A stretch of DNA of 58,451 bases. Origin: a virus. Its lineage: Duplodnaviria; Caudoviricetes. The stretch spans positions 1-58,451 of the IMG/VR virus record IMGVR_UViG_3300035703_000103, one strand, 5' to 3'. The notes beneath the pieces were generated by a model. The model saw only the letters and a program-made list of their open reading frames with translations, was not told the DNA's origin and searched no databases. Each line of letters starts with the position of its first letter. The stretch's first letter is position 1. Shown here one piece after another: positions 1 to 58,451 of the stretch. The position numbers were made by a program, and so were the translations under genes.

Positions 1-5
1 ACCAA

Positions 6-3000
6 ATGGCCGAGGCCATGATCACGCAGATGAAGGACAACCTGGTGTGGCTGCACAACCAGTGGCGTCCTGAACTGCGCGAGCGGTCCCGACTCTGGTA
101 TGTGGGTGGGAATCGAATCTCACACCGCATGGCTTCGCGGTTTAGGACCGAGCCCTGGCGTGTGGCCGCCGTGATTGCGGCGACCAGCCCTCAGAAGGAC
201 TGGTTCCAGAACGTCTCTTTGGCCGAGCGCATTCTGGAGGCTGTGGTCAACAACTCGCAGATGGTCTGGACGGCGCAGATGACCGAGACGGTCAACTCCC
301 GCGACTGGGGCGGCAAGGAGTCGCGCGATCTTGGGTTCACGCCGCGCAATGAAATCTCTCGCCTGCAGGGCAAGACCTTGCGTGATCTGTACGAACCTCA
401 GAATCCGCAGTCTCTTTTGGATATGGCGGTATGGGTTCGCGCTTGGGATGAGACGTACAACCCCCGCATGGCCCGGGTGATCTCGCCTGAAGGCAAGTTC
501 ATTGATGAGTTCGACTCGACCAAGGACGGGCGTCCAATCGGCCTGCGTTGGCAGAGTTTTGCCACCATTGCCAAGACGCTGGACATCCTGACTGCGCCTG
601 ATCGGGCGACAGTGTCTGCCATGATCGGCTCGAACCATAAGGTTCGCTCGTTCTACAACAACATCATCGCGCCGTTTGATGATGAGGACGTGACCATCGA
701 CACCCATGCCGTGGCCGCCGCTCTGATGCGTCCTCTGGGGTCGTCAGCCACCGAGGTGGCTCACAACTTTGGCACCAACGAAAAGGGGATGCCGGGACCG
801 AAGAACAGTGCCATCACGGGACTTTTCGGCACCTACCCGATCTACGCTGAAGCCTATCGCCGTGCGGCCCGCGAGGTTGGGGCGCTTCCCCGTGAGATGC
901 AATCCATCACTTGGGAAGCGGTGCGCGGCCTGTTCCGTCCAGAGCAGAAGAATGAGAGAATCAAGGGCGAGGCAGACCGCATTTGGCGCGAAGTCTCTGA
1001 GGGGGAACTCGATGTCAACGAAGCGCGGCAGCAAATCTCTGGCCTGGTTGGTGGCATCCAAGACCCCGCCTGGGTCAGATCCCCTGCTGGAAGTAATGAA
1101 GCAGCGCGGGATTCCTCTTACGCAGGAGGAGTACCTGAAGATGGCGTACCCGGAAGGGGTGCCCAACCCGGTGCCGCCAGAGGTGATGGCCGAGATGCCG
1201 GCGCAACTCCGGCAAGCCTGAGTCGCGGGCGACGAGTCACGCCCAGCCCTGACTCCGCAAACTTCAAGCGGTGGAGCGGTAACGCACCGCTGATCACCTC
1301 CGCAGCAGCGGTTGACCATGTCTTCAAGACGGGTCAGAAGGTGGTGCTAGAAGGTTTCCACGGCACCGGTCGAGGCGACCGTGTTGGCACCGTGTTCCAG
1401 CGCAAGCGCGCCACCTCCGGCCCGATGGCGTTCTTCACCAGTTCGCCCATGTTGGCCAGCTCCTACGCTCAGGGCAAGCCCGACACCAGCCGCGCACTGG
1501 AGGACAACCCGTTTGAGAGTTGGTTCAAGTTCAAAGGGAAGGGGATGCGAACGGCGGTCAACCTCGACCGCGCGTGGTACTTCCTTGATCAAGAGAGCAA
1601 GGCCAAGATCGCCAAGCGGATGCCTGACATTCGCACGGACGATGACGGCAACATCGTCTACGAAGAGGGCGGCGGCGGCCTTGGCAACTACGACTGGGAA
1701 CTGAAGCAAACCAAGTCGGCCTACCTTCGCGAGGGTAACCCGCTGAAGGCGGCCGTTGAATCTTGGTTGAGCAGCGGCGCCATCTACGGCGACGAGGGCC
1801 GTTTCCGCCAGGTGCTGCGCTTGGCCGGCTTCCCGACGGATGCGCTGGAGTACGACAACCCGCAGGAGACGTACCCGTTCGTCTACAAGGTCTATGTCTC
1901 CATGCTCAACCCGCTGGTGACCAGCGACATTCCGAAGGAAGTGGACGATGCTTTGCGCGCGGCGGCTGCAAAGGACCGCAGCAAGGCCAAGTCACAGTTC
2001 GGCGTGGACTCTTGGGACAAGAACACCCGCACGCTCAAGGAGTGGGTGGGCGAGTATCTGAACCCATCCAACGGGGACAACCGATACGTTTGGACGAGCA
2101 TCCCTGACAAGGTGACCGAGGTCTTCAAGAGCCTGGGTTATGACGGGATCATCGACTACTCGGGGAAGAACGGTTCCACCGAAGTCGCGCCGGTCTACAT
2201 CCCGTTTGAAGAGGGTCAGGTCAAGAGCGCCATAAGCAACAGCGGCGAGTTTGACCGCAGCAAGAAGGACATCCAGGCCAGCAGATCGCGTGAGCGCCTA
2301 CTGTCAATGCCTGCGGTGCCGGTGAGTCCGCTACCTGATGGTATGGCTCTTGGTGATCTTCGTGTCTTGGCTAGTGAGCGGTATAAGGCCGCCGCCAAAC
2401 TTGGCCCCGTCAAGATGATGGATGACCGCGCCGTGCTGCTGACATCGGTCGGGATGAAGAAGTCGCGCAGCCACAGCGCCGACAAGCGGGTGCTGGAATT
2501 GATGGGCTCAATTCGAGAGGTGCTTGGTGCAGCAGAGCCCGTGGCTTCGATTCCGCATCAGCAGGAGAATCCAGGCGACTCAATCCGCGCGTGGCACTAC
2601 TACGGCGCGAAGGTGGATATCGATGGCGAGGAGGCGTTTGCCAAGCTCGTTGTGCGCGAGTCGGTCAACGGCGAGATTTACTACGACACCGACCTGTCTG
2701 GCGTGGAAGATATCAGCGGTCGTGCTGGTGACGCTGCCCGATCCAAAACCGGGGCGGCAGCCGTTTCCGCTGACAAGAGAACTCTAGCCGATCTTCTGGG
2801 CTCAGGCAATCTTGGGAGTGAGGTTGAGTTGAGCCGCGGCCGCTCCGACATCGACCTATGGGGGCAGGCCGGAACCAAGTCGGCTGACTCACTACAGGCC
2901 CTCGCCGATTGGGGTGGGAACAGTATTCTTGGTGACCCCAAAACTGGCAAGCCTGTTGTTTGGTGGGCTTATCGCAGGGCCGGCAGCAAGTCGCGCCTTG

Positions 3001-6000
3001 ACCCAATGCCTTACCCCGACAACGGAATCTATGGCCTGATCGTCACGCCGCTTGGAGTGCAGGCCCGTTTGGACATGGATTCTCCGCAGTCGTGGATCAA
3101 CGAGGCCAATGACTCGGATGAGTATGTCCGCCCGGTGCCAGTCATCATTCGTGGATCGGAAGTGGTGACGGATGATCAACTATTCGACCTGACACAGTCC
3201 AACCCCGGCAAAACCAACGGTCAGATTGCCGCCTCACAAGACATCGCGATGGTGGAGTTGGAAAGCCTGGCTTCCAATCACAAGATCGTTCTCAACCCGG
3301 CTAATGTCATTGAGTTGCGCGGTCCATTACTTGCGCTGATCAACGACGCTGGCAACACCCTGCAGCGTTCTCCTACTGATTACGCCTGGGTGTTCAATGG
3401 GTACGACACCTTGAATGTTGATTCAACCGTGATTACGGAGGATGGGCCTGAGTTGCCGGATGTCAGCTTGAGCCGCGGGCGCGATTCCATGCCGCCCCGC
3501 TTGTACTTGGTCGGGCCGGAACTGGCTGACTCGGCGCAGGGCACGGAAGACATGCCGCGCAGCGCGCAGGATCAGGATGCGCCCCGCCGGACATTCGGCC
3601 TTCGCGGTAAGAGCACGTTCCCTTCGCGGGCTGAAGTGAACTCTATGTCCCGCGAGGAGTTGATCGACTTCCTGCAGGATATGGACCCCAACGGGGACTA
3701 TGCCGATCCTGATCCCGACCCGGATGTGCGCCTGTACCAGACCGCCAGGGGCTGGAACGTGGAGTACAACGAGTACGACGACCCGGGTGAATTCGACTCC
3801 TATGAGAAGGCGTATCGGGCCTACAACGAGGCCAGGTATGCGAATGCCGAGAACCCTCCGATGACGCTGGATCAGGCGCGGGATGCTGCGCTGACGATGC
3901 TGCAGGAGAGCGTGTGGCCGGAGGGCGGCGGCGAGGTGGTGCAGGCGCGGTTTGGAAGGCCGGACATCACGAAGTCCTCTGGCCGTACCACCAGCGCCCT
4001 TGATCTGATCGCCAAGCGCGACGAGATGGGGCGCCTGAAGTTCGGCCTGGGCAGCAAGGCTTACTCCATCGTGGCCGAGATTGCCGGCAATGTGCTGGAT
4101 CGGGTGCGGATGAAGCCCATCTCCGAAGACCTCGCTCGGGCCATGCTCAAGATGAAGGTCGCCATTGAGAAGGCGCAGGAGCGCACGGTGGATGTGGCCA
4201 AGTCCATGAGCGAGTTGGACCCGGCCGAGCGGCAGATGATCTCGGATGTGATCGAGCAGGAACTGACCGCAGGCGTGGTGCCCCCGACTCGGGTTCTGCA
4301 GATCGCGGCGACCATTCAGGGAATCATGTCCGAGCAGTCCAAGGAACTGATTGATTTGGGCATGCTGCGCCAGGAAGACGCCGACCGTTGGGACGGTCGC
4401 TACATCCCGCGCTTCTACGAGCAGAAACTGGGCGAAGAAGCATCGGCCTGGATGAAGGCCGTCAAGCAGTTGTTCACCCGCCCGCGCGCGATGATGGGCA
4501 TCAAGGGCAGCAACCTCAAGTCACGCGGGCTGTGGGAGACGATCCCGGCGGACGAGTTGGATGCTTGGCTGGATGAGGGTTGGGAAGTGCGCGACCCAGC
4601 CTATGACGAGGCCACCTCCACCGAGGTCCGTATCTGGCGCGACTACACACGCCCGGAGCGGGACAGCATGGGCGAGATCCGGGACTCTATGTTCCGATTC
4701 GTCATGGGCTACCAGAAAGCCCAGCGCGACATCGCCTTGGGCAAGATGTACCGGCACATCAACCAGACGATGTCCAGCAGCGCCGAGAAGGATGGATTCG
4801 TTCGGGTGCCGGACTCCAGCATCGACGGCGTGGACGTACCGTCCTACGGCGAGCTGGCCGGCAAGTGGGTTCCGCGCGAGGTGCTGGATCACCTGAGTGC
4901 CTTTGACGCCACGCAGCGCAACGCCCTGACCCGCTTCTACCAGAAGGCCCTGTCCTACTGGAAGGAGGGCAAGGTGGTGCTCAACCCGGTGAGCCACGCC
5001 AACAACATCTTGTCCAACTTGACGATGGCGCACTTCGCAGGCGTTTCATACTGGGACACGCCCAAGTACATGGCCGCGCTGCGGGATATGCACAAGGGCT
5101 CGCCCATGTTGGACGAGGCCAAGGACGCGGGCCTGTTCGTGGGCTCGTTCAACCAGGCCGAGATCGCCAAGGCCCTGCCCGAGCAGTTGAAGGTGCTGGC
5201 CGGCAAGACAGAGAGCAAGGCCGGCAAGGCATTCGACTCGGTCTTCACTTTCTTCACATACTTCCTTCGCAAGCCGATGAACGCGGCCTACGAGCTGGAG
5301 GATCAGTTCTTCCGCTACCTGCTGTACCGCGACGCCCGCACCCGCGGCATGGGGCCTGAGGACGCAGTGCGCCACTCGCAGCGGCACATCTTCACCTACG
5401 ACGATCTGCCGCAGGGTGCTCGCGTGGTGCGCGACACGGCGCTGCCGTTCTTCGCTTACACCTACAAGGTGATCCCGGTCCTGGCCAAGACGGCGCTGGA
5501 GTACCCGCATCGGTACGCAATGCCGGCCGCGATCCTGTACACGATCAATGCACTTGGCTTTGCGATGGCTGCTGGCGACGAGGACGACGGCTGGATGGAC
5601 ATCATCCGGCGCTACTCATCTGACGCCGACTTCCGCAAGAAGGTCAGCGACCTCGAGGGGCAGGAGCGCAAGGACTTGCCGCCGTGGATGCAGGGCGCGA
5701 GTGCTTCGCTTGGCACGCCTAAGGCGATCCGCCTGGGGCAGGATGACAAGACCGGGCTGCCGGTGTACCTGGATGTCAGCAAGATCTTCCCCGGCGGCGA
5801 CCTGTTGGACGTGACGGCCAACGCAGGCGGCCTGCCGTGGCTGCAGCCGCTCACGCCTTCAAGTCCTGTGCTCAACGCGGCCGCGGCTCTGTTCTTCAAC
5901 CGCGACCCGTTCTACGGCAAGGACCTGGTGGACAAGAACGACACGCCGGCAGAGGCTGCAAAGAAGCGCGCCGAGTGGGCCTGGAAGCAGTTCTCTCCGG

Positions 6001-6356
6001 CAATCACGATCTACAACTACCACTGGGACCGCGGCATGAACGTCCTGGCCAACGCCACCGGAACGGACATCCTGGGCTACACCGGGCGCGGCAAGGACGG
6101 CATTCCGGTGGATGCGATGTACGCGGCCATGCAGACCTTCGGCATCAAGGCGCGGCCCATCGACCTGGAGAAGTCAGCCGACATCAACGCCAACAAGGAG
6201 AAGTCCATCATCCGCTCCATTGAGGCAGAAATTTCGCAACTCAAGCGCCTGGAGGCCAAGGGCGCAATGACCTCGGAGAAGGCTCAAAAGCAGATCGACC
6301 TTGAGAACGAGAAGATCCAGCGAATCCGAGACAAGAAGTTGGAGTCAGTTGAATGA
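6..6356 (+). CDS. C-terminal 2116 aa of giant polyvalent (DarB/ddrB-like, probably virion-injected) protein; probably continues from ORF 53444..58451 across the circular junction
   Basis: Modules separated by LSRGR-like linkers. (1) A domain with SPQKDW..N / KVRSFYNNI / VTIDTHA / MQSITWEAVR motifs, HhH-glycosylase-like (tentative). (2) ADP-ribosyltransferase ART-PolyVal-like: FHGT..FFTSSP..YA..VYVSMLNPL..GYDGII..QVKSAISNSGEFD. (3) LPD3-like: WHYYGAKV.IDGE...KLVVRE..NG..YYD. (4) Helical C-terminal region typical of these proteins. Confidence 0.85.
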   Translation: MAEAMITQMKDNLVWLHNQWRPELRERSRLWYVGGNRISHRMASRFRTEPWRVAAVIAATSPQKDWFQNVSLAERILEAVVNNSQMVWTAQMTETVNSRDWGGKESRDLGFTPRNEISRLQGKTLRDLYEPQNPQSLLDMAVWVRAWDETYNPRMARVISPEGKFIDEFDSTKDGRPIGLRWQSFATIAKTLDILTAPDRATVSAMIGSNHKVRSFYNNIIAPFDDEDVTIDTHAVAAALMRPLGSSATEVAHNFGTNEKGMPGPKNSAITGLFGTYPIYAEAYRRAAREVGALPREMQSITWEAVRGLFRPEQKNERIKGEADRIWREVSEGELDVNEARQQISGLVGGIQDPAWVRSPAGSNEAARDSSYAGGVPEDGVPGRGAQPGAARGDGRDAGATPASLSRGRRVTPSPDSANFKRWSGNAPLITSAAAVDHVFKTGQKVVLEGFHGTGRGDRVGTVFQRKRATSGPMAFFTSSPMLASSYAQGKPDTSRALEDNPFESWFKFKGKGMRTAVNLDRAWYFLDQESKAKIAKRMPDIRTDDDGNIVYEEGGGGLGNYDWELKQTKSAYLREGNPLKAAVESWLSSGAIYGDEGRFRQVLRLAGFPTDALEYDNPQETYPFVYKVYVSMLNPLVTSDIPKEVDDALRAAAAKDRSKAKSQFGVDSWDKNTRTLKEWVGEYLNPSNGDNRYVWTSIPDKVTEVFKSLGYDGIIDYSGKNGSTEVAPVYIPFEEGQVKSAISNSGEFDRSKKDIQASRSRERLLSMPAVPVSPLPDGMALGDLRVLASERYKAAAKLGPVKMMDDRAVLLTSVGMKKSRSHSADKRVLELMGSIREVLGAAEPVASIPHQQENPGDSIRAWHYYGAKVDIDGEEAFAKLVVRESVNGEIYYDTDLSGVEDISGRAGDAARSKTGAAAVSADKRTLADLLGSGNLGSEVELSRGRSDIDLWGQAGTKSADSLQALADWGGNSILGDPKTGKPVVWWAYRRAGSKSRLDPMPYPDNGIYGLIVTPLGVQARLDMDSPQSWINEANDSDEYVRPVPVIIRGSEVVTDDQLFDLTQSNPGKTNGQIAASQDIAMVELESLASNHKIVLNPANVIELRGPLLALINDAGNTLQRSPTDYAWVFNGYDTLNVDSTVITEDGPELPDVSLSRGRDSMPPRLYLVGPELADSAQGTEDMPRSAQDQDAPRRTFGLRGKSTFPSRAEVNSMSREELIDFLQDMDPNGDYADPDPDPDVRLYQTARGWNVEYNEYDDPGEFDSYEKAYRAYNEARYANAENPPMTLDQARDAALTMLQESVWPEGGGEVVQARFGRPDITKSSGRTTSALDLIAKRDEMGRLKFGLGSKAYSIVAEIAGNVLDRVRMKPISEDLARAMLKMKVAIEKAQERTVDVAKSMSELDPAERQMISDVIEQELTAGVVPPTRVLQIAATIQGIMSEQSKELIDLGMLRQEDADRWDGRYIPRFYEQKLGEEASAWMKAVKQLFTRPRAMMGIKGSNLKSRGLWETIPADELDAWLDEGWEVRDPAYDEATSTEVRIWRDYTRPERDSMGEIRDSMFRFVMGYQKAQRDIALGKMYRHINQTMSSSAEKDGFVRVPDSSIDGVDVPSYGELAGKWVPREVLDHLSAFDATQRNALTRFYQKALSYWKEGKVVLNPVSHANNILSNLTMAHFAGVSYWDTPKYMAALRDMHKGSPMLDEAKDAGLFVGSFNQAEIAKALPEQLKVLAGKTESKAGKAFDSVFTFFTYFLRKPMNAAYELEDQFFRYLLYRDARTRGMGPEDAVRHSQRHIFTYDDLPQGARVVRDTALPFFAYTYKVIPVLAKTALEYPHRYAMPAAILYTINALGFAMAAGDEDDGWMDIIRRYSSDADFRKKVSDLEGQERKDLPPWMQGASASLGTPKAIRLGQDDKTGLPVYLDVSKIFPGGDLLDVTANAGGLPWLQPLTPSSPVLNAAAALFFNRDPFYGKDLVDKNDTPAEAAKKRAEWAWKQFSPAITIYNYHWDRGMNVLANATGTDILGYTGRGKDGIPVDAMYAAMQTFGIKARPIDLEKSADINANKEKSIIRSIEAEISQLKRLEAKGAMTSEKAQKQIDLENEKIQRIRDKKLESVE
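1012..1221 (+). CDS. Overprinted 69-aa protein nested in +1 frame of giant gene (MSTKRGSK...DPLLEVMKQRGIPLTQEEYLKMAYPEGVPNPVPPEVMAEMPAQLRQA)
   Basis: RBS-like GAGGGGG upstream of ATG 1012; globular-looking sequence; host frame here is G/A/R-rich linker with atypical A/T-ending codons. Confidence 0.7.
   Translation: MSTKRGSKSLAWLVASKTPPGSDPLLEVMKQRGIPLTQEEYLKMAYPEGVPNPVPPEVMAEMPAQLRQA
2711..2775 (-). ncRNA. Putative antisense small RNA with tRNA-Gln(UUG) anticodon stem-loop mimic
   Basis: Minus strand: outer stem UGUCAGCGG/CCGCUGAUA; inner CCCGG-UUUUGGA-UCGGG (5-bp stem, 7-nt loop; 2737-2753); begins about 6 nt after a -10 box. Confidence 0.55.
2781..2809 (-). promoter_or_regulatory. Antisense sigma70-like promoter inside giant gene
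   Basis: Minus strand TTGCCT (2809-2804), 17 bp spacer, TAGAGT (2786-2781). Confidence 0.55.
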
Positions 6357-26494: not shown

Positions 26495-26656
26495 ATTCCC
26501 GCAAGCAGCGTGTGCGGCACAACTGCTGCAGCCCTGCGATGTAGACCAGCGCGGCCACGACCTGAGCGCAAACCGCAGTTGCCGATTCCTGGCGCGGAAC
26601 GCGGGCAGGCGCAGGGCGGACAGCCGGGAAAGACCGGCACCACCAAAGGATTCCCC

Positions 26657-26911: not shown

Positions 26912-26912
26912 G

Positions 26913-27401
26913 ATGGCGGCGGCAAAGCCCATTGATGTCCAGTCGCTTCGAGCCCAGGCTTCGGTGTGCGCAGAGCGCGGACTGCTGATCCGCCCTGATG
27001 GCTCTCCTTTCCCTGTCAGGGTTGGCGCCAAGGGCTACGCCCTCGTCACTTTGGGGGGCGTCACCAAGGCGGCTCATCGGCTCATTTGGGCTTTGGCCAA
27101 CGATGCCTCGCCGGATGGGCAGGTGGACCATATCGACGGCAACAAGCTGAACAACCGACCGGCCAACCTTCGGTGCGTCTCTGGACATGTGAATCAGCAG
27201 AACCGCAGAGGCGAAAACCGGAACAACATTCTCGGGCTCATGGGTGTTTCACCGAACCGTTGCAGCACTGTTCGTCCGTTCACTGCACACATCACCATCG
27301 CCGGCAAGAGTAAGTACCTTGGCAGCTTCAAGACTGCCGAGGATGCCCATCAGTCCTACTTGGCCGCCAAGCGTGCTCATCACGCAGGCTGCACCATCTG
27401 A
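26913..27401 (+). CDS. HNH homing endonuclease with AP2-like C-terminus
   Basis: AHRLIW..VDHIDGNKLNNRPANLR; YLGSFKTAEDAH. Confidence 0.9.
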   Translation: MAAAKPIDVQSLRAQASVCAERGLLIRPDGSPFPVRVGAKGYALVTLGGVTKAAHRLIWALANDASPDGQVDHIDGNKLNNRPANLRCVSGHVNQQNRRGENRNNILGLMGVSPNRCSTVRPFTAHITIAGKSKYLGSFKTAEDAHQSYLAAKRAHHAGCTI

Positions 27402-38614: not shown

Positions 38615-39286
38615 ATGGCGACGTTTCTGGAACTGTGCCGCGACTTGCGGCAGGAAGCTGGCATCGCCGGGACTGGACCCAACTCTGTGCTGGGTCAGTC
38701 GGGCGAGTCCAAGCGCATCGTGGACTGGGTGCGCCGGTCCTACAACGACATCCAGTTGGAGTCCTCTCAGTGGCGGTGGCTCACGGCGCAGTTCCAGTTC
38801 ACGACGACACCGGGCAAGCAGTCTTACAGCTCGCTTGAGGCGGGCATTACCGCTAGGTTTGATCGGTGGAATCCCCGCTCAATTCGGTTGAGTCTCGAAG
38901 GCGTACAGGATCAAATCGAACTCCAGTACATCAGCTACGACGAGTTCCGCTCGATCTATCTGACTGGGCCTCGTCCAGAGGTTCGTCCCACGGTGGTCAG
39001 CATCTCGCCGCAGCAAGAACTGTTGCTGGGTGACGTGCCAAATCTCGCATACACGGTGGTCGGTGAGTATCAGAAGACCCTGCAGACACTGCAGGCTGAC
39101 TCCGACGCCCCCGAGATGCCGGCGCAGTACCACGATGCAATCCTGTACTGGGCCTTGACGAAGTACGCGCGCTACGAGTCTGCCCCGGAAATCTACCAGG
39201 ACGCGATGGACAACTACCGCAGGCTGATGGGTGGACTTCGCCAGCATCAGTTGCCGTTCATTGCCCAGGCGGAGCCGCTGGCGTGA
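38615..39286 (+). CDS. Head-tail adaptor (tail tubular A-like)
   Basis: MATFLELC..W.W..P.MP.QYH.AI...AL. Confidence 0.75.
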   Translation: MATFLELCRDLRQEAGIAGTGPNSVLGQSGESKRIVDWVRRSYNDIQLESSQWRWLTAQFQFTTTPGKQSYSSLEAGITARFDRWNPRSIRLSLEGVQDQIELQYISYDEFRSIYLTGPRPEVRPTVVSISPQQELLLGDVPNLAYTVVGEYQKTLQTLQADSDAPEMPAQYHDAILYWALTKYARYESAPEIYQDAMDNYRRLMGGLRQHQLPFIAQAEPLA

Positions 39287-41301
39287 TCACGAAGTTTTCA
39301 GACACCCGCTACGACTTTGCTCGGCTGGCCGGGGGTCTGGATCAGATCACCCCGACACTCGCACTCAAGCCAGGTATTGCGCGGCGCGCAGCCAACTTTG
39401 AGTGCTCGATCACGGGCGGCTACACGCGAATTCAGGGCTACGAGCGGTTTGATGGCCGTGCGCGCCCATCGGCAGCGAACTATGTGGCTGTCGTCGTGGC
39501 CAGCGCCTCGGGGTTCGTGGTCGGCCAGTCCGTCACGACCGCCACAGGATCGGGTGTCCTGGTTGCCATCAGTGATGCGACCCTGGTGCTCACCAAGGTC
39601 ACCGGCTCATTCAACCCCGGGCAGGCTATCGGCGGCACCGCGGTCATCTCGTTTGCCTTGATCGTGGCCAGCCCGTCCGACGATGCAAGGTATCGGCATC
39701 TCGCAGCAAACGAGTACCGCAAGGACATCGGTGCCGTGCCCGGCGCAGGCCCCGTGCTTGGCGTGGCGTACTACGGCGGCAAGGTCTATGCGTGGCGCAA
39801 CAACGCCGCGGGCACGGATGCCGTGATGTGGTTCTCCAGTGCAACCGGCTGGCAGCCCGTGACCTTCTTTGAGGAAGTGAAATTCACCAACGCCAACACC
39901 AGCGTCATTGAAGGTCAAACGCTGACGCAGGGTGGCGTCAGTGGGCTGATCCGGCGCGTGGTTTTGGAGAAGGGCTCGCTGGCCTCATCGACAAATTCTG
40001 GTCGTCTGATCATCAGCGGACGCACGGGGGGCAGTTTCTCTGCCGCCGCCGCGACCTCAAGCGGTGGAGGGCTCCTGACCCTGGGCGGCTCCGAGTCTCA
40101 AATCCGTCTCCTTCCCGGTGGCCGCTTCAATTCAGCGGTGGCCAACTTTGGCGGCGGGCCGCAGAACCGGCGTCTGTACGTGGCAGATGGGGTCAATCGC
40201 GCCTTTGAGTTTGACGGCGACGTGCTGGTTCCCATCTCCACGGGCATGACACCGGACAGGCCCGCCCGGGTGATGGTTCATCGGCAGCATCTGTTTCTGA
40301 GCTTTGGCTATTCGCTTCAGTATTCGGCGGTCGGCTTTCCGTACTCGTTCAGCCCGATCTTGGGTGCCGGCGAGATTGCCATGAACACCGACATCACCGA
40401 TCTGGTGCAGTTGCCCGGTGATCAAGCCACTGGCGCGCTGGCGGTATTCACGACCGACGAGACGGCAATTCTGTACGGGTCCAGCGCCCAGAACTTCCAG
40501 CTTTCAAACTTCAACACGCGCACGGGCGCTGTTGTTGGAACCGCACAGAACCTGGAGCAAACCTACATCCTGACGGATCAGGGCGTGGTGAGCCTGTCGG
40601 TGACGCAGCAGTTCGGTAACTTCCTGCCCGCATCGCTGACGACAACGCTGCGCCCGTTCATTCGCCAGCACCTGTCTCTTGCAAGCTGCAGCGGTCTGAG
40701 CCGCGAGAAGGCGCAGTACCGAGTCTTCTTCTCGGACGGCTTTGGCCTGTACGTCACCGTTCGCAATGGGCAGTTCCTTGGCGCGATGCCGGTTCAGTTT
40801 CCTGACCCGGTGATCTGCATGACCGAAGGCGACCGGGCTGACGGCAGCAAGACCAGCTACTTTGGATCCAACAACGGCTATGTCTACGAGATTGACGCGG
40901 GCACGTCTTTCGATGGCCAGGACATCCCGGCCAACGTGAGTCTGGTGTTCAACGCGATGGGTAACAGCCGATTGCTCAAGCGTTACCGTAAGGCTTCGTT
41001 TGAGATTTTTGGTGACGCCTACGCCAAGTTCGCTGTGGGCTACGACCTGGGCTACCGCTCGATGGAGTACGAGCAGGCCGCAGATGCGCCCAACGAGACT
41101 GACCTTCGATCTTCGTACTGGGACCAGTTCACCTGGGACGACTTTCTTTGGGACGGCAAGGAGCTGGCCCCGGCCGAGTTTGATGTGACCGGCAGTGCCG
41201 AGAACGTGGCCTTCCGAATTTCATGTGTGGCCCCGGATGTTGAGCCGTTCACGGTCAACAGCATCACGGTTCACTACAGCCCAAGACGGGGTATCCGATG
41301 A
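39283..41301 (+). CDS. Tail nozzle/tubular protein B-like
   Basis: GGLD..GGY.RI.GYERFDG; beta-rich; position. Confidence 0.75.
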   Translation: MITKFSDTRYDFARLAGGLDQITPTLALKPGIARRAANFECSITGGYTRIQGYERFDGRARPSAANYVAVVVASASGFVVGQSVTTATGSGVLVAISDATLVLTKVTGSFNPGQAIGGTAVISFALIVASPSDDARYRHLAANEYRKDIGAVPGAGPVLGVAYYGGKVYAWRNNAAGTDAVMWFSSATGWQPVTFFEEVKFTNANTSVIEGQTLTQGGVSGLIRRVVLEKGSLASSTNSGRLIISGRTGGSFSAAAATSSGGGLLTLGGSESQIRLLPGGRFNSAVANFGGGPQNRRLYVADGVNRAFEFDGDVLVPISTGMTPDRPARVMVHRQHLFLSFGYSLQYSAVGFPYSFSPILGAGEIAMNTDITDLVQLPGDQATGALAVFTTDETAILYGSSAQNFQLSNFNTRTGAVVGTAQNLEQTYILTDQGVVSLSVTQQFGNFLPASLTTTLRPFIRQHLSLASCSGLSREKAQYRVFFSDGFGLYVTVRNGQFLGAMPVQFPDPVICMTEGDRADGSKTSYFGSNNGYVYEIDAGTSFDGQDIPANVSLVFNAMGNSRLLKRYRKASFEIFGDAYAKFAVGYDLGYRSMEYEQAADAPNETDLRSSYWDQFTWDDFLWDGKELAPAEFDVTGSAENVAFRISCVAPDVEPFTVNSITVHYSPRRGIR

Positions 41302-43482: not shown

Positions 43483-45476
43483 GCCGCACCCTGAGCATCC
43501 TGGGCGCTGCCTCGGGCCTTGCCGGGGCTGTTGATGAAGCCTTCGAGAACGTCACCCTCCTGCTGACCGGAGACGGGACGAACGGAGCGCAGAACAACAC
43601 TTTCTTTGACTCATCGGCCAACAACTTCTCGATCACCCGGTTCGGGAATGTGACGCAGGGGAATTTCTCGCCGTTTGGGAATCGGTGGAGTAATTATTTC
43701 CCCGGCCCAAACAGCGCGTCAAGTTTAACTTTCACCGACCCCGCGACACTTTTTTCAGCCGCTTTTAATTTTGGAGTTGGTGATTTTACCGTTGAATTGT
43801 TTGTTAGACCGGAGATAGCTTCCGGCGTTAACTCAACAATGGGATATGTAGATTTTCGTGGGAATTCATACACGGAAAATCATCTAGCGTTATTCCAGTC
43901 TGGAGGTGTATTTAGGGTGGAAAGGGCGGCTTCTCCTATAATTTCTGGCGGAAGCGTCTCTACAAATCAGTTCACGCATGTCGCGCTGGTTAGGAGAACC
44001 GGCACTTTAACTCTTTATCTTAACGGAACTTCTGTTGGTTCTACATCTGACACCACTTCTTATGGTAATTCCTACGCCAGAGTTGGCAGACTAGCAGAAG
44101 ACTACCCTGCTAGTAACCCAGGGATGTTCGGAAATATCAGCAACGTCCGAGTCGTAAAAGGCACAGCCCTCTACACCGCCAACTTCACCCCTCCCACTGC
44201 ACCCCTCACCGCAGTCCCTGGCACATCCCTGCTGACCTGTCAGAGCAACCGCTTCATCGACAACAGCGCCAACAACTTCGCCATCACCCGCAACGGCGAT
44301 GTGAGCGTCCAGCGCTTCAGCCCGTTTGCTCCAAGTGCTGTTTACAACCCGGCGACGGATGGGGCGAGTGCTTATTTTGATGGCAGTGGGGATTATCTAC
44401 AATTACCCACCACTTTCCCAACATTTTCGGGCGACTTTACAGTAGAACTTTGGGTATACAGAACTTCTGCAAGTAACCAAGGTGATTTTGTTGCATTTAA
44501 TAGAGACGGCGGCACTGGCGTTTGCTCAATACAAATCTACTCTGGCACGACTGGGTCTGTTGTCGCACTTCTTTCTACTAATGGCTCTTCACAGACGACG
44601 CTGTCTTACTCAAATATCGCTATTGCAAATCAGTGGAATCATATTGCAGTAACAAGATCGGGTAGCACTGTTAGGTTATTTGTTAATGGGGTTTCTTCGG
44701 GATCAACGGCAACGGTTTCTGGAGCACTATATTCTGGTTCTACCACAAACTACGTTGGTTTTGGTAATTTTGAATACTTGGGCTATATGTCCGGCCTTCG
44801 AGTTGTTCAGGGCACCGCCCTCTACACATCCAATTTCACCCCACCCACCGCACCTCTCAACCCCATCACCAACACCTCCCTCCTGCTTAACTTCACCAAC
44901 GCAGGCATCGCTGATGCAAGCGGCATGAACGTTCTGGAAACCGTAGGCAATGCTCAGGTTTCAACGGTGGTCAAGAAGTACGGCACGGGGGCGATGGCGT
45001 TTGATGGGAATGGGGATTGGTTACAGGCTCCCGCATCTTCTAGCTTCGCGCTTCGCAACACCTTCACGGTGGAAATGTGGATCTATCGTGTCGGAACCGC
45101 TGTTCAGTGGCTTGTGGGCAACAACACCGGCAGCGGGAATGACGCTTGGCTTATTGAGATTGAAGCCAACAACACGGTCTATGCGGGAGGCTGGACGGTC
45201 GGTACGCAAACCACGGCCACGGTTCCCTCGGGCGCTTGGTGTCATTTGGCTCTTGTTTGCAACGCCGGGACGCTCAGTCTTTATTTGAACGGTGTGCAGT
45301 CTGGAACTCCCGCTACCGGCATGGACTTCAGCAGTGCCAACGCGCTTTTTGTTGGGTCGATGTCAGGTGGCGCTCGTGGGCTGAGCGGCTACATCGACGA
45401 CCTCCGCATCACCAAAGGCGTTGCCCGGTATCTCGCCAATTTCACCCCGCCCACGGCTCCCTTGCCCCTTCGATAA
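43479..45476 (+). CDS. LamG/concanavalin-like repeat tail protein (receptor-binding candidate)
   Basis: Three LamG-like units: FTVE.W, HVALVR, GYIDDLRITKG.ARY..NFTPPT. Confidence 0.85.
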   Translation: MSRTLSILGAASGLAGAVDEAFENVTLLLTGDGTNGAQNNTFFDSSANNFSITRFGNVTQGNFSPFGNRWSNYFPGPNSASSLTFTDPATLFSAAFNFGVGDFTVELFVRPEIASGVNSTMGYVDFRGNSYTENHLALFQSGGVFRVERAASPIISGGSVSTNQFTHVALVRRTGTLTLYLNGTSVGSTSDTTSYGNSYARVGRLAEDYPASNPGMFGNISNVRVVKGTALYTANFTPPTAPLTAVPGTSLLTCQSNRFIDNSANNFAITRNGDVSVQRFSPFAPSAVYNPATDGASAYFDGSGDYLQLPTTFPTFSGDFTVELWVYRTSASNQGDFVAFNRDGGTGVCSIQIYSGTTGSVVALLSTNGSSQTTLSYSNIAIANQWNHIAVTRSGSTVRLFVNGVSSGSTATVSGALYSGSTTNYVGFGNFEYLGYMSGLRVVQGTALYTSNFTPPTAPLNPITNTSLLLNFTNAGIADASGMNVLETVGNAQVSTVVKKYGTGAMAFDGNGDWLQAPASSSFALRNTFTVEMWIYRVGTAVQWLVGNNTGSGNDAWLIEIEANNTVYAGGWTVGTQTTATVPSGAWCHLALVCNAGTLSLYLNGVQSGTPATGMDFSSANALFVGSMSGGARGLSGYIDDLRITKGVARYLANFTPPTAPLPLR

Positions 45477-45486
45477 GGACTGAACC

Positions 45487-46026
45487 ATGCTCATCGCTGA
45501 ACTGACAAACCCTGTGCCGTTGGACTACCGGGCGGCTTTCCCGAACACGAGCTTCCCCCAGTCCGGGCCTGATGATGATTTCCTGGCGGCCAACGGATAT
45601 GCGCGTGTCAACGCTTTCAAAGAGCACGACCGCGCCACGGAAAAGCTCATCCCTGCCGAGCCGTACTTTGAGGCACCTTGGGTCTACACCGTGGCCGTGG
45701 CCCCCAAGAGCGCCGAGGAATTGGCCGCAGAGCAGGCCGCAGCCGTGCAAGCCCTGCAAGCCGGGATCGTGGCCGCAGTGCAGGCCCGCCTGGATGACTT
45801 CGCACGCACACGCAACTACGACGGCATCCTGAGCGCGGCTACCTATGCAGCCTCTACGGTGCCCAAGTTCGCAGCCGAGGGGCAGTACGCGGTGACCGCA
45901 CGCGATCAGACCTGGGCCACGCTCTACGCGATCCTGGCCGAAGTGCAGGCCGGTACGCGCCCAGTGCCCACCGGGTATGCCGACATTGAGGCTGATCTGC
46001 CCGTGCTTGAGTGGCCTGCTGCCTGA
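45487..46026 (+). CDS. Tail fibre assembly-like protein
   Basis: FPNTSFP; LDDFA.TRNYDGILSA.TYA. Confidence 0.7.
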   Translation: MLIAELTNPVPLDYRAAFPNTSFPQSGPDDDFLAANGYARVNAFKEHDRATEKLIPAEPYFEAPWVYTVAVAPKSAEELAAEQAAAVQALQAGIVAAVQARLDDFARTRNYDGILSAATYAASTVPKFAAEGQYAVTARDQTWATLYAILAEVQAGTRPVPTGYADIEADLPVLEWPAA

Positions 46027-53443: not shown

Positions 53444-56400
53444 ATGCGCTTTGATGTCAACGCCGCTCGCAAGGCTGGGTACACCGACGACGAGATTGCC
53501 GACTACCTTTCTGAGCAGCGCGGGTTTGACATTGGCTCGGCGCGGGAATCTGGCTATTCGTCTCGGGAGGTCTTGGACTTTCTGAGCAAGCCTGAGGCCA
53601 AAAAGCCGGCAGCCGCCAACACACCGGCCTATGTCGAGGAGCCCATCAACTACGACGATGCGGCGACTTCGATGGTGGGCACGCCTTCGCAATCAAGCGG
53701 TGGCGGCGTCCTTCAGCGCATCGGCGCGGCGCTGCGGCCTGACCAAAATCGCAGCGTGCTTGAGGGTTACAAGCAACCGGAGGCCGAGCGCCAAGCGGAG
53801 GTTGACCGTCGCCTGTCCTACGGTCAGGGTCCAATCAGTCAGAAGGTCGCGGCCGATGCTGACCGTGTTCGCAGTGCGCGTGGCACGAACGACCAGATCA
53901 AGTTCACCAACCCCACCTATGAGGGCCGGGTGCGGGGTGTCGTTGACGCGATGGATGAGCGTGGTGAGCGTTCGTTTGGCGACCTTGCCGCGCTCGGGCG
54001 TGATGGCGAAATTCAGCGGGCATTGACTCAGAGCAAGGCCGACGAGTTCCGCTCTGCCGGCGAGTGGGCCATCGACACCGCATCCAATGTGATGCAAGGC
54101 GCCGTGTCTCTGGCGCAGATGCCGGTCAATCTGATCGCGCCTGATGGCTCTCTGGCCGAGTCGCTGCGGCAGACTCAGAAGGAATTGCAGGCTGAGGAGT
54201 CTGATGTCCTCAAGGCCAGCCGCGAAGTCCTCAAGCAGCGGGTGATGAACGAGGAAGGCTTCTTCGGTCAGTACGCCGCGACGGTCAAGCAACTGATCAC
54301 AAACCCGACGCTTGCCATCTCTGAGGGCTTCAAGCAGTTGCCGATGTTCCTCGGGATCGTGGGCGCAGCCCGTGGGGGCGCGGCGGCGGGTGCTGCCGGC
54401 GTGGCCGCTGCAGGGCGTGCAGCCCCTACGGTTGCGCTGGCCGATGCAATTGGTGGTGGCGCACTGACGGCGCGGGCCGCCGCTATTGGCAGCACTGTGG
54501 GCGGTGGCGCCGCAGCGGTGACGATGGCCGCAGGCGATGCGGCCGGTCAGACCTACGAGGAACTGACTGATCCCCGGCGCACTCCGCGAGAAACCTGGGA
54601 GCAGAACCCAGACTATCAGCGCCTCGTGGCCGAGGGCAAGACGCCTGATGAGGCGATCAACGAGTTGGCCGTTGCCAAGTCGCGCATGGCCGCACTCGTG
54701 GCCGCGCCACTTGGCATCTTGGGCTTCATGGGCGCCGAGGCAGCAGTTGCTGGTCGCGGCATTGTGCAGGCCGCAAGAGATGCGCTGACCTTCAAGGGTG
54801 CCGCAAAGTCTTTCGGCAAGGAAACGATTGGTGAGCAGTTGGAGGAGGGCGGTACACAGGCCGCATCCAACTTCGCCGTTTCTACGGTCAACCCCAACAA
54901 GTCAATCCTTGAAGGCGTGCCTGAGGCGATGGCGCTGGCCGGCGTCACTTCGACGCCATTCGGCGCGGTTGGCGCCTTGAGCAACTATCAGCAAGCGCGG
55001 GCTCAGTTGGAATCCGGCCCGAACGTGGCGCCACTGGTCGACCTCGAAGGTCAAGCCGCCATTGATGACCGTTACGGCGACACCCTGCGCCCTGAGCGAG
55101 TGGCCGCCGAGCGCGAGCGCCTGGAGCGGATGCGCCGCCTGTCTGAAGCGCAGAGCGTGGATGAGGCGATTGTGCTGGCCAACGAGGTGGCGAATTCGCC
55201 TGTGGCGCCGCAGACGCCTGCTTCACCTGTGGTTCCGGTAAACGCCGGGGATGATCCGGTTCTGAGCAATGTGCTGACATCGCTCGGGGCACTGAGCAAT
55301 CAACCAGGAGGCGTCAATGTCGGGGCATCAAATCAGCCTGCACCCACAGCTACAGGAGGCATTGGAGTTGGGGGCGGTGACGTTCTCGGAAGCCTGGTTA
55401 CTGATGGACGAAATCCTGCTGCAGGACTGCGAGGTGGTGATGATGCCGGCGGAGTACCTGGTGTTAGTAGCCAAGGTGCAGTTGTGCTGGGCGGAGGTGC
55501 CGCCGGGGGTGGTCGTCCAGTAGTTCTCCAGAACCGCGACCGATCAACGGCGGCGTCCATCTCGCAGATGAACAGCATCGCGGCCGCACCCGACTATCTC
55601 AGGACTGGCCCTAGCCGTGAGATGGTCACGGGCGCTCCGGTGGTGTTCGGTGATGTGCCGGAGTCTGCAGCGATGGGGCGGCAGGAGACGGTGGTGGACG
55701 GTCGCGGCAATCGAGTTGCCGTGCAGTACGCCGTGGTGGATGCGGCCGATCTGATCCCGTCTAACCGCGCAGATGGCACCCCGGTTGCCGAGTACGAGCA
55801 AGGCGCATCGGGCAAGTTGCGTGCGGTGGCCGGCAACGGCAGAACGGCCGGCCTGAAGGAGGCGTACAACCGGGGCACGGCAGGTGCCTATCAATCCGAG
55901 ATGATGGCCGACTTGCCCAATCTCGGAGTTGATCCGGCTGCGGTGCAGTCGATGCAGCGTCCGGTCTTGGTGCGGGTCATGTCGCAAGATGATGTGACGC
56001 CCGACATGGGCGACCGCACGAACACGGCGGTGACGCAGAACCTCAGTCCTGTTGAGCAGGCGGCCAACGATGTGCGCCGGGTGGACGTTCGCGGGTTTGA
56101 GTTCACCGACGCAGGCGACCCGACGCCGCAGACGGTTCGTTCGTTCGTGTTCTCTTTGCCGGAGTCCGAGCGCGGCAACTTGCTCAACGCGGACGGCACG
56201 CCCACTCGACAGGCGGTTGATCGGCTTATGGGCGCCACATTCCGTGCCGCCTATGGCAATGATGGGTTGGTGCAGTTGTACGCGCAGGCCACCGACCCGG
56301 ATGCGCGGTCGGTGATCAACGCCGCGGCGATGGCGGCTGGCTCCATGTCCAGCCTGGTTGGGTCCGCCCCGGAGTTCGACATTCGAGGCGTGGTGTCGGA

Positions 56401-58451
56401 TGCCATCGGTATGGCGGTCAACGCCTCTAGGCAGGGAGTTCGCCTCGCGGACTATGCGGCCAACACCGATCTGACCACAGACGCTTATGCGGCTGACATT
56501 GCAAGGTTCCTGGGTGAGAATATCCGCTCACCCAAGAAGATGGCCGAGGGGCTGCGGGCGATGGCGAACTTTGCCGCGCAGCAGCAGCAGGCTCTGGTCA
56601 GCAACGCCACCAATGCCGGCCTGTTCGGGGATCAGCCCACGGCCAGCCGCCAGGAGATCATCAATGCCGTCTTCGGACAAGCCAACGGTCAACCCCAAGT
56701 CGCTGCTAGAAACGCCGCAGTGGCGCAGGATGGCGGTCAAGGTGCTCAACGGGCAGCAACCGACCCAGCAGGAGCAGGACGAGTTTCAGTCGATGGCGCT
56801 GCAGGAAGCCAAGCGGCGACTGGACGAAATGAGCAAGGCTCAGACCAGCAAGGACTGACATCTCCCACGGTCGATCAGGTTCTGCAGCAGCAGGACCGTG
56901 CGGCCAATGAAGCGGAACTTGATCAGCGTGATCAGGTTCGACGCGAGAGCGAGGCGGGCGCCGATCAGTTCACGCTGCAGGCGCAGGATGGCCGGGTAGA
57001 CAACACCGGCAGCCTGTTCTCAAACGACAGGGAGCAGCAGGACGAGGACTTCCTGCAGACCCTGTTTGGTGAAAGCGCGAACCAGGGTGGCACCGCGCCG
57101 CCCCGTGAAACCCCGCAGCAACGACAAGAGCGCCTGCAGCAGGGCGCGCAGAAGCTGCAGCAGTCGGTGGCGCAGGAGATTGAATCGGTCGAGGCGCAGA
57201 TTGCCGACTGGTCGTCCCGCGAGTACAAGGGCAACAAGACCGCGATTGAGTTGCGCGGGGATGGGCCGTCCAATCAGGAGTCCCTGACGGTTGGTTCAAT
57301 CAACGAGGGTCGGCGCCTGAAGGCCATCACCGGCCTGCGCGAATCCTCTGCCGGGCTCAAGCGACTGGCTCAGACGCTGTCCAACCCGCAGCAGGCGGCC
57401 TCGCAGATGGAGCAGTTCGACTCCATCATGGACGATGTCGAGCGTGACTTTGCCACGGGCGGTCGCACGATGTTCAAGACCCCGGATCAGGAGTTCGAAT
57501 ACCGGGTGCTGTCGTCACTTGGCGCGACCTCGCAAGCCGGCAAAGGCGCGGTGACTTCCAGTGGCTTGAGCAAGGCCATACTGCGCGCGGTCAAGCAATC
57601 CCGCGCACAAGGCAAGACCAGCAACTCCGCTTCCCGCCTGCCGACCGTGGAGGGCGTGGGCTCTGTTGTGCAGATGAAGGTCGGGCAGACCTTCCAGATC
57701 CGCGACCAAGGTCAGGTCCACCAGGTCCGCGTGGTAGATGCCAAGTCGGCAGGCATCTCGTCCAAGGCTCTGGACATTGTCGCCAAGGTGTTCGGCAAGC
57801 GTGTGGTGTTCGTGGACCCCGGCACCTTGGATGTGGACGGATTCGTGCGGCCTGACGACAACCGCAACATCTACATCAGCGTGCGCTCCAGGATCAACCC
57901 GTTGGCCGTACAGGGCCATGAGTTGACGCACCTGCTCAAGCGCGACAACCCGCAAGCCTACGCCGCCTTGGAGGCGGTGGTGATGCGCGAACTGCGCGAG
58001 GGTGCGGGAAAGAGCTTCTCGGCCTACTACGGCCCTGGCGCCAACACCGAGGAGTTGGTGTCCGACCTGGTGGGCAACCGCCTGATGGACAAGGATTTCC
58101 TGGTCAGATTGTTCGCCGAGATCCAGGCCCAGAACCCGCAGGGCGCGCAGGGCATCATCGCCAAGTTGGCCGCGATCATCAACCGGGTTGTGTCTCGGTT
58201 CATGGAGTTGTCCAAGCAAGCCGGCTTTGAGACGGACGCCTTGGTCAAGCGGGTGGCCCCGATTCAGGATGCGGTGCGGCAGGCTCTGAAGGAGTACGCG
58301 CTGCAGCAGGGTCTGCGGCCGGCTCAGATGGAGGTTGCGCTGGCGCGTGCGGGAGCGGGCTTGAGCATTGAGGGTGCGGCGCCCGTGCGGCGCAGTCCGG
58401 TTCGACCGGCCAGCGCGGATCGTGCAGACCTCAACCGTTCGCTCGGCGCGC
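53444..58451 (+). CDS. N-terminal about 1669 aa of giant polyvalent protein (runs off window end; missing from ORF track)
   Basis: Starts MRFDVNAARKAGYTDDEIADYL; same frame at all points checked; ddrB-like ParB domain (LQNRDRS..AGNGR..PVLVR, about 55520-56650); zincin HELTH at 57917-57931. Confidence 0.85.
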   Translation, partial: MRFDVNAARKAGYTDDEIADYLSEQRGFDIGSARESGYSSREVLDFLSKPEAKKPAAANTPAYVEEPINYDDAATSMVGTPSQSSGGGVLQRIGAALRPDQNRSVLEGYKQPEAERQAEVDRRLSYGQGPISQKVAADADRVRSARGTNDQIKFTNPTYEGRVRGVVDAMDERGERSFGDLAALGRDGEIQRALTQSKADEFRSAGEWAIDTASNVMQGAVSLAQMPVNLIAPDGSLAESLRQTQKELQAEESDVLKASREVLKQRVMNEEGFFGQYAATVKQLITNPTLAISEGFKQLPMFLGIVGAARGGAAAGAAGVAAAGRAAPTVALADAIGGGALTARAAAIGSTVGGGAAAVTMAAGDAAGQTYEELTDPRRTPRETWEQNPDYQRLVAEGKTPDEAINELAVAKSRMAALVAAPLGILGFMGAEAAVAGRGIVQAARDALTFKGAAKSFGKETIGEQLEEGGTQAASNFAVSTVNPNKSILEGVPEAMALAGVTSTPFGAVGALSNYQQARAQLESGPNVAPLVDLEGQAAIDDRYGDTLRPERVAAERERLERMRRLSEAQSVDEAIVLANEVANSPVAPQTPASPVVPVNAGDDPVLSNVLTSLGALSNQPGGVNVGASNQPAPTATGGIGVGGGDVLGSLVTDGRNPAAGLRGGDDAGGVPGVSSQGAVVLGGGAAGGGRPVVLQNRDRSTAASISQMNSIAAAPDYLRTGPSREMVTGAPVVFGDVPESAAMGRQETVVDGRGNRVAVQYAVVDAADLIPSNRADGTPVAEYEQGASGKLRAVAGNGRTAGLKEAYNRGTAGAYQSEMMADLPNLGVDPAAVQSMQRPVLVRVMSQDDVTPDMGDRTNTAVTQNLSPVEQAANDVRRVDVRGFEFTDAGDPTPQTVRSFVFSLPESERGNLLNADGTPTRQAVDRLMGATFRAAYGNDGLVQLYAQATDPDARSVINAAAMAAGSMSSLVGSAPEFDIRGVVSDAIGMAVNASRQGVRLADYAANTDLTTDAYAADIARFLGENIRSPKKMAEGLRAMANFAAQQQQALVSNATNAGLFGDQPTASRQEIINAVFGQANGQPQVAARNAAVAQDGGQGAQRAATDPAGAGRVSVDGAAGSQAATGRNEQGSDQQGLTSPTVDQVLQQQDRAANEAELDQRDQVRRESEAGADQFTLQAQDGRVDNTGSLFSNDREQQDEDFLQTLFGESANQGGTAPPRETPQQRQERLQQGAQKLQQSVAQEIESVEAQIADWSSREYKGNKTAIELRGDGPSNQESLTVGSINEGRRLKAITGLRESSAGLKRLAQTLSNPQQAASQMEQFDSIMDDVERDFATGGRTMFKTPDQEFEYRVLSSLGATSQAGKGAVTSSGLSKAILRAVKQSRAQGKTSNSASRLPTVEGVGSVVQMKVGQTFQIRDQGQVHQVRVVDAKSAGISSKALDIVAKVFGKRVVFVDPGTLDVDGFVRPDDNRNIYISVRSRINPLAVQGHELTHLLKRDNPQAYAALEAVVMRELREGAGKSFSAYYGPGANTEELVSDLVGNRLMDKDFLVRLFAEIQAQNPQGAQGIIAKLAAIINRVVSRFMELSKQAGFETDALVKRVAPIQDAVRQALKEYALQQGLRPAQMEVALARAGAGLSIEGAAPVRRSPVRPASADRADLNRSLGA
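55317..55523 (+). CDS. Overprinted 68-aa protein nested in +1 frame of giant gene
   Basis: RBS AGGAGG before ATG; hydrophobic/acidic globular sequence; host frame is Gly-rich linker. Confidence 0.65.
   Translation: MSGHQISLHPQLQEALELGAVTFSEAWLLMDEILLQDCEVVMMPAEYLVLVAKVQLCWAEVPPGVVVQ
56664..56858 (+). CDS. Overprinted 64-aa protein nested in +1 frame of giant gene (MPSSDKPTVNPKSLLETPQWRRMAVKVLNGQQPTQQEQDEFQSMALQEAKRRLDEMSKAQTSKD)
   Basis: RBS AGGAG before ATG; host frame has A-ending codons (gga/gca/caa/cga). Confidence 0.65.
   Translation: MPSSDKPTVNPKSLLETPQWRRMAVKVLNGQQPTQQEQDEFQSMALQEAKRRLDEMSKAQTSKD

Follow-up and report, generated by a model that had tools for sequence, protein, structure and literature searches.

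A very likely gene nested in the linker behind the ddrB-ParB module of a giant phage polyvalent protein

The DNA analysed here is the IMG/VR virus record IMGVR_UViG_3300035703_000103 (Caudoviricetes), 58,451 nucleotides (nt) long, and this whole stretch is called the window below. Near its end lies a giant open reading frame (ORF) for a phage polyvalent protein, and within that host ORF, on the same strand, a second and much smaller ORF occupies 56664-56858. Judged from sequence, the small ORF is very likely a real, conserved nested gene, and its frame is very likely translated. The first-pass annotation of this DNA had proposed an overlapping same-strand gene here, and comparison with relatives supports it well: position, start codon, Shine-Dalgarno-like motif and peptide motif are conserved, and one subfamily shows purifying selection in the nested frame. 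Given translation, a structure model tips the balance slightly toward the product binding the ddrB-ParB module encoded just upstream; a gene that is real and whose product binds the module, taken together, stands at about even chances. The features on which the argument turns are as follows.

53444..58450, + strand: host ORF, the N-terminal 1669 amino acids (aa) of a giant phage polyvalent protein, open at the contig end
55520..56668, + strand: ddrB-ParB module (host aa 693-1075), comprising the Pfam domain and, C-terminal to it, a conserved helical extension
56369..56623, + strand: predicted contact surface in the C-terminal helical subdomain of the module, host aa ~976-1060
56652..56656, + strand: Shine-Dalgarno-like AGGAG, with a 7-nt spacer to the nested ATG
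56664..56858, + strand: putative nested gene in the +1 frame (offset 1) relative to the host ORF, 64 codons plus TGA
56669..56851, + strand: linker, low-complexity and A/G/Q-rich in the host frame, read in two frames, with a host-frame G+C content at third codon positions (GC3) of.40
56694..56816, + strand: match to the A7 family profile, containing the core motif TPQ....VLNGQQP
56852..56860, + strand: host codons GGA CTG ACA (G-L-T), the first residues of the conserved GLTSPT...FTL...GSLF, with the nested TGA inside

A second frame in the linker

The first-pass annotation had given the gene 64 codons in the +1 frame behind an AGGAG, and the sequence agrees: the ORF runs from an ATG at 56664-56666 to a TGA at 56856-56858. 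It had also placed the gene just after the ddrB-ParB domain, which is right for the conserved module, since the module reaches host aa ~1073 and the ORF starts at its end, and wrong for the Pfam domain, which ends at aa 846. The limits of the module come from distant homologues of the giant protein (P0003-P0014), which are conserved up to '...PTASRQEII' at host aa ~1073, or nt 56662. The nested ATG sits at this same codon position, 4 nt before the aligned module end at 56668. The linker that follows varies in length and sequence in the alignments of homologues, and after it an element 'GLTS(Y/P)T...F(T)L...LF' is conserved across them; P0015 has 62% identity over host aa 1133-1192, and P0011 aligns 'QQGLTSYT' at this element. 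With its ATG at the module end and its TGA inside the next conserved host element, the nested ORF thus takes up just the unconstrained linker. From stop to stop the +1 frame extends back to 56487 (123 aa from an upstream ATG), and the coding-like signal in it begins only near 56660.

The base composition of the linker follows the nested frame. Over 56664-56858 the G+C content at codon positions 1/2/3 is.83/.60/.40 in the host frame and.60/.40/.83 in the nested frame, which is the flip of codon bias that had been described at first pass; over the whole host ORF it is.70/.49/.73. To place this dip, host GC3 was computed in 2394 sliding segments of 195 nt across 33 long ORFs of the window (mean.752, standard deviation.094). 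It falls to.45 or below in 24 of the 2394 segments, of which 8 lie at 56642-56941, 13 at 55217-55591, 2 at 39100-39309 and 1 at 1038-1232, and the nested-ORF site is one of only two strong dips in the scan.

In overlapping genes, the frame with genome-typical composition is taken as the older. Here the codon pattern is genome-typical in the small ORF and atypical in the host-frame linker, so the small frame probably coded first, and the linker would be a younger frame formed by read-through. The word 'overprinted', which had been applied to the small gene, therefore probably has the direction reversed.

The 64-aa product is predicted by AlphaFold2, from an 18-row alignment, to form helices at residues 11-14, 18-28 and 35-62 with a mean predicted local distance difference test score (pLDDT) of 69.8. 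At the level of prediction, these three helices bear out the helical product suggested earlier. The N-terminus is basic and the tail is basic and proline-rich; the translation has no cysteine, no signal sequence and no hydrophobic N-terminus.

The host ORF is cut by the ends of the record. Against L002, a relative with 95% identity, the window proves to be a circular permutation whose end joins its start; comparison with L002 shows the host ORF resuming at 3..6356 of the window after ~171 nt that are absent from it. The full-length counterpart in L002, protein P0002, has 4189 aa. PF18763 (ddrB-ParB) matches host aa 695-846 with 69.7 bits, against a Pfam gathering cut-off of 27.6, and the continuation carries DUF7178, ART-PolyVal and LPD3, which puts several effector domains on one polypeptide. 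The genes upstream include portal, major head and tail fibre, which is a late or structural context. The host ORF is a phage-type polyvalent protein in the sense of Iyer et al. 2017 (PMC5512222). No phage or plasmid matched the host ORF in a megablast search.

Conservation, selection and start signals

Relatives were fetched by aligning the end of the host-frame domain against virus, metagenome and genome collections and 401 Burkholderiales genomes, which yielded 14 loci representing 12 distinct elements. At the same spot, 8 of the 12 (L006, L007, L010, L011, L015, L021, L022 and L023) have a +1 ORF of 48-77 codons with coding-like G+C and a shared motif. Together with the Bacillus phage described below, this is the outcome of the conservation and co-occurrence check that the first-pass annotation had named. 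The start lies 8-20 nt past the module end in the relatives, and in L006, a near-copy of the window, it is placed identically to that of the window. The consensus of the nested peptides is M..(K/R).(L/W)..TP(Q/A)G..LL...L.GK..(T/S)P, with the core TPxGxxLLxxxLxGKxxxP. A dip in host GC3 directly after the domain occurs in the same 8 of 12 relatives, though weakly in L022, and the combination of dip and coding-like nested G+C is seen in L007, L010, L011, L015, L021, L023 and L027-L038. The last twelve are further virus loci found by subfamily peptide patterns, and in all 12 of them the host frame around the nested peptide is free of stops over the whole locus. In all 20-odd loci the nested ORF is accompanied by the same upstream module, while the host domains downstream vary.

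Three of the 12 relatives lack the ORF: L008 (the same as L013 and L020), L009 and L014. Their +1 frame is R/P/W-rich junk, and their linkers keep a normal host G+C pattern (.83/.80/.90 in L008/L013 and.87/.77/.70 in L014). In a module tree of 17 rows these three loci form one clade (support 93/90); it is the sister of the window and falls within lineages that carry the ORF, so the absence can be explained by one loss. The tree omits L005, L006, L008, L012, L020, L027, L028, L033, L035, L037 and L038, which are duplicates or near-duplicates, broken, or known from an annotated record only. The remaining relative, L012, is a contig of a Simplicispira metagenome-assembled genome with a broken host frame: it meets stops ~26 codons (~80 nt) past the domain end, where the base pattern changes frame. 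This break is either a frameshift or an assembly error.

Counting lineages rather than loci, the +1 frame is open with a start in 9 of 9, while module identity falls to ~45%; the joint chance of this openness is ~1.4e-6.

Profiles of the nested peptide were searched against whole genomes in six frames. The A2 profile, built from five nested peptides, has its best match in genome G401 at C3:259397-259537, 14 nt past the domain (E 1.7e-13), and its best match in genome G070 at C2:847-933, directly past the domain (E 0.013). The larger A7 profile, built from 21 peptides with the window excluded, finds a single match in the six frames of the window, at 56694-56816 (E 0.0019). In the cultured Bacillus phage vB_BspP_Dartukuta (MW749009.1), which has 50% GC and was found separately from the 12 relatives, it again finds a single match, at 45879-46019 (E 5.5e-12); the nested ORF there occupies about 45867/45879-46037, for a product of 52-56 aa. 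This directly follows the module match at 44735-45877, for which tblastn covered query residues 2-394, and it lies inside a coding sequence annotated 'putative methyltransferase'. That 12.6-kb coding sequence is the only one annotated in the Dartukuta record over the nested-ORF stretch, and a literature search on this phage found nothing. The A7 profile had no match in four phages whose ParB modules are more distant, including P1. A profile search of 5.8 billion proteins returned ten small called proteins of 46-64 aa in three subfamilies, with E values from 3.6e-15 to 3e-3.

Searches for a known family returned nothing convincing. With 8 family members, none matched Pfam at E <=0.01 (best 0.07, RVE6), and the best E value in PHROGs was 0.097; Pfam and PHROGs thus gave no antitoxin or immunity family, and PADLOC was not searched. 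A profile search of the PDB with the peptide family had 0 hits, Foldseek against the PDB with the peptide model reached E 3.9 at best, the ESM Atlas held no usable match for the peptide, and tblastn of the peptide against phages gave nothing below E 4. Among 1.84 billion representative proteins HMMER matched the 64-aa peptide to one, P0001 (E 2e-5), a 3830-aa repeat protein that matched in 3 stretches on a 'TTQFRR' repeat; the match was taken as spurious. A compensated frameshift, in which homologues would read the stretch in the host frame, was also tried as an explanation and rejected: in BLASTP against P0002-P0015 the peptide had no match below E 1.

One alternative is that the ORF arose by chance and that the compositional quirk belongs to a GC-rich, low-complexity linker with no gene in it. 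An open +1 frame of 64 codons is expected within the host ORF with P ~0.23, which puts the length alone within chance and leaves the flip and the conservation beyond it. The window has 170 ORFs of at least 100 aa, and the lack of a matching protein database family would also suit a chance ORF. Against this, the motif-less low-complexity linkers of L008/L013 and L014 have normal GC3, substitutions show the three-base periodicity of the nested frame, and blind profiles match at the exact spot in unrelated genomes, including the phage with 50% GC. The blind matches (G401, G070, Dartukuta) and the substitution pattern already contradict this explanation, and it is scarcely credible.

Selection was gauged in the L023-like subfamily (11 loci, 8 unique sequences, codons 15-45), with changes counted along a minimum spanning tree and the search-pattern codons set aside. 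Of the changes, 38 alter the host-frame residue but are silent in the nested frame and 21 are of the reverse kind, where 24.3 and 31.4 were expected (binomial p = 0.0015). By host codon position 1/2/3, changes in the overlap number 45/32/23. In an upstream control of 345 nt read only in the host frame they number 79/59/287, with 55 versus 259 changes of the two kinds, which is the normal pattern; the downstream host stretch is unalignable and hence offers no control. A motif-anchored comparison of frames gave a mean BLOSUM score per column of 1.16 in the nested frame and 0.36 in the host frame, but anchoring on the motif biases this comparison toward the nested frame, and it is given little weight.

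Several further points weigh against the gene. The peptide of the window is a divergent family member: the A7 profile reaches 15.1 bits, and hhalign gives a probability of 57.6% (P 1e-4) over residues 11-49. L021, a second copy in G401, was missed by the A2 profile, making one miss among three blind test copies. For the pair L015/L023 of the motif-anchored comparison the two frames are equally conserved, with 13 of 24 identities in each. Between the window and its only close relative, L002, there are 0 substitutions over 56459-57056; this tract extends 200 nt past the ORF on each side and looks more like recent recombination than constraint. Outside the tract, the aligned region differs from L002 by ~5% (191 differences in 3699 nt). 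The 598-nt tract abuts an in-frame insertion or deletion of 504 nt at 57066-57617, where the window has 550 nt and L002 has 46 nt.

These points also bear on whether the +1 frame might be a relic, once coding as a small gene or a frame-shifted segment and now untranslated in this phage, its codon pattern not yet decayed. The lineage of the window offers no variation from which to gauge current selection, and its peptide is the most divergent in the family, both of which a relic would explain. Yet the frame, the ATG and the strong AGGAG are intact and the nested GC3 of.83 is fully kept; the frame stays open with a start in every lineage, as counted above, and purifying selection in the nested frame is seen where it is measurable, in the L023-like subfamily. 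A relic is improbable, and the preferred reading is still a gene in use.

The start signals support internal initiation. Every family member has an ATG or GTG start. A Shine-Dalgarno-like 4-mer lies 7-9 nt upstream of the start in 11 of 15 loci and, with Dartukuta counted, 6-10 nt upstream in 7 of 9 lineages (background 7.5%; P ~4e-7). The starts were picked after the upstream sequence had been viewed, which makes this statistic optimistic, and the other 4 of the 15 loci have no such motif; both facts temper the case. In L007, L011, L021 and the L023 subfamily, a nested-frame stop stands 3-5 codons before the start, which points to internal initiation and not to a frameshift.

A programmed frameshift would have ribosomes slip to +1 after the module and make a truncated protein with a helical tail and no free peptide. 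The predicted packing onto a subdomain encoded just upstream would suit such a C-terminal extension in cis as well as a separate partner, and the open +1 frame of the window does reach back to 56487. However, the conserved start codon at the N-terminus of every member, the Shine-Dalgarno-like motif in most lineages, and the upstream stops, which leave hardly any room for a shift, all speak for a separate peptide. No shared slippery sequence was seen by eye at the frame junctions, though no systematic scan was made. A frameshift is very improbable.

A predicted contact with the upstream module

The first-pass annotation had proposed that the product regulates or inhibits the ParB-like module. 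The module (host aa 693-1075, alignment A8) and the nested peptide (alignment A4) were modelled together, and the complex scored 0.66, 0.66 and 0.67 in three runs, versus 0.01 for the best of 3 controls. Of 80 solved complexes 58 reached the mark used for this score, as did 2 of 110 mismatched pairs; because our own alignments were used, these counts are a rough guide here. The runs agree on at least 94% of contacts, and the pLDDT of the partner is at least 73. Peptide residues 13-16, 20-30 and 38-53 are predicted to touch module residues 284-291, 321-330 and 343-368, a surface that includes the conserved '...KKMAEGLRAMANFA...' helix, and in the model the best-conserved helices of the two partners meet. 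No PDB chain is matched by the peptide profile, so no similar solved complex is known. The proposal is thus supported in part, at the level of a model: a contact is predicted with the C-terminal helical subdomain of the module, and not with the ParB Pfam stretch, and on inhibition the model is silent.

Based on the model, docking on the adjacent module is plausible, and the following course of events is suggested. Ribosomes would start internally on the long mRNA at AGGAG-N7-ATG and make a three-helix product of ~64 aa whose N-terminus is basic. The hydrophobic helix that the family conserves (LLxxxLxGK, which in the window reads MAVKVLNGQ) would dock on the conserved 'MAEGLR...' bundle of helices that closes the module at its C-terminus, and the product would act as a partner of the upstream module, whether as chaperone, adaptor or regulator. 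In this proposal the host gene encodes a giant, late-expressed polyvalent protein whose linker after the module is disordered, and the linker would be the only place where a partner gene could sit beside an internal domain without breaking the giant ORF.

Three points temper this proposal. The complex score is the model's own confidence and not a measurement; the predicted contact lies away from the ParB Pfam stretch (aa 695-846), so a simple active-site inhibitor is not favoured; and the ORF-lacking clade retains the 'MAEGLR' helix, which means that the module can exist without a nested partner. That the product is an inhibitor is doubtful.

A real and translated nested gene could also have a product that acts elsewhere, for instance on a defence protein of the host or on DNA of host or phage, with the linker merely tolerating a second frame. 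The evidence for the gene itself would be identical. The basic N-terminus and the basic, proline-rich tail of the peptide would fit such a role, the proposed docking helix is kept where the ORF is lacking, and the structure model is the sole support for binding. On the other side, the ORF keeps company with the same upstream module in every ORF-bearing locus while the downstream domains differ, and the complex model scores far above its controls and joins the two most conserved helices. An action elsewhere is somewhat unlikely, though the strongest of the alternatives, and binding to the module is slightly favoured once translation is granted.

Neighbouring frames and known systems

A second and stronger dip in host GC3 (to.31) lies at 55217-55591, in a Gly-rich linker just before the module, and it too contains an ORF:

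55317-55523: second +1 ORF with an ATG start, 68 aa, in the linker before the ddrB-ParB module

All 3 of the 3 substitutions relative to L002 in 55244-55443 change the host-frame residue and leave that of the +1 frame unchanged. Tblastn of the 55317-55523 peptide found no match in any fetched locus. L021, on the reverse strand, has a protein-like +1 ORF of ~82 codons ~330 nt upstream of the module start, where host GC3 is.33-.50, and this ORF has no detectable similarity to the 55317 ORF of the window. The single low-GC3 segment at 1038-1232 of the window (host GC3.45, one 195-nt segment) falls in the continuation of the giant ORF.

Downstream of the linker, the host ORF has a HELTH (HExxH) motif at 57917, host aa 1492, where Pfam matched nothing. 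The motif is compatible with the zincin-like peptidase of polyvalent proteins described by Iyer et al. (PMC5512222).

One broader idea is that giant polyvalent proteins carry hidden partner genes in their linkers, the linker after the ddrB-ParB module having arisen when an older small gene was read through in another frame, and that gene surviving as a nested antidote or chaperone; we regard this as speculative and unlikely. The nested product may then restrain or escort the module inside the cell that makes the giant protein, up to its packaging and injection. If this were true, the 55317-55523 ORF would mean that the module is bracketed by two nested genes.

Same-strand nested genes in phages are almost never annotated, and this family is a conserved, testable example that spans phages of Burkholderiales and Bacillus. 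It offers an answer to the puzzle of where the partner gene for an internal domain of a polyvalent protein might be located, and if the product binds the module it would give a handle on the role of the DdrB-like ParB module in early infection. In giant phage proteins, a 'disordered linker' whose codon usage is odd deserves a search for a second frame.

Several known systems resemble this arrangement in part. In phage lambda, Rz1 is a small gene embedded in the +1 frame of the larger same-strand gene Rz, with its own start, and the Rz and Rz1 proteins bind one another; Rz1 is secreted as a lipoprotein and has a lipobox cysteine. Rz/Rz1 is the closest working analogy, since the nested ORF is likewise an embedded +1 gene with its own start. 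Unlike Rz1, the nested product has neither a lipobox cysteine nor a signal sequence, and it is therefore no member of the Rz1 family. The setting differs as well: the host ORF here encodes an injected giant protein of many domains, only an inter-domain linker is read in both frames, and nothing connects the gene to lysis.

Immunity genes of polymorphic toxins and antitoxin genes of type II systems can lie directly after a toxic domain. The nested ORF is alike in that the gene of a small partner would directly follow the domain to which binding is proposed; it is unlike them in that no antitoxin family is matched in Pfam and the predicted contact is away from the ParB Pfam stretch.

Phage P1 iddB (NC_005856.1) is likewise an annotated ORF internal to the gene that encodes a DdrB-ParB domain; it lies inside ddrB at L004 3207-3605, which is 26577-26975 of NC_005856.1. 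It differs in being on the opposite strand and over the ParB region rather than after it. As a relative of the nested ORF it was rejected, being antisense, and the family profile finds nothing in P1.

In Iyer et al. 2017 (PMC5512222), which describes the domains and architectures of polyvalent proteins and no nested gene, the DdrB-like ParB polyvalent proteins share with the host ORF PF18763, ART-PolyVal, LPD3, a place at the end of the structural block and HExxH. The words overlapping, linker, frameshift and low-complexity have 0 occurrences in its main text, and our literature search found no description of a nested gene within polyvalent proteins. In viral overprinted genes, the subject of the reviews PMC3494269 and PMC8227390, one stretch likewise encodes two proteins, with one frame genome-typical and the other disordered and compositionally odd. 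The usual case is a novel accessory protein formed on an older gene, whereas here the small frame looks older. Altogether, the nested ORF is a new family in a new context, within a known kind of arrangement.

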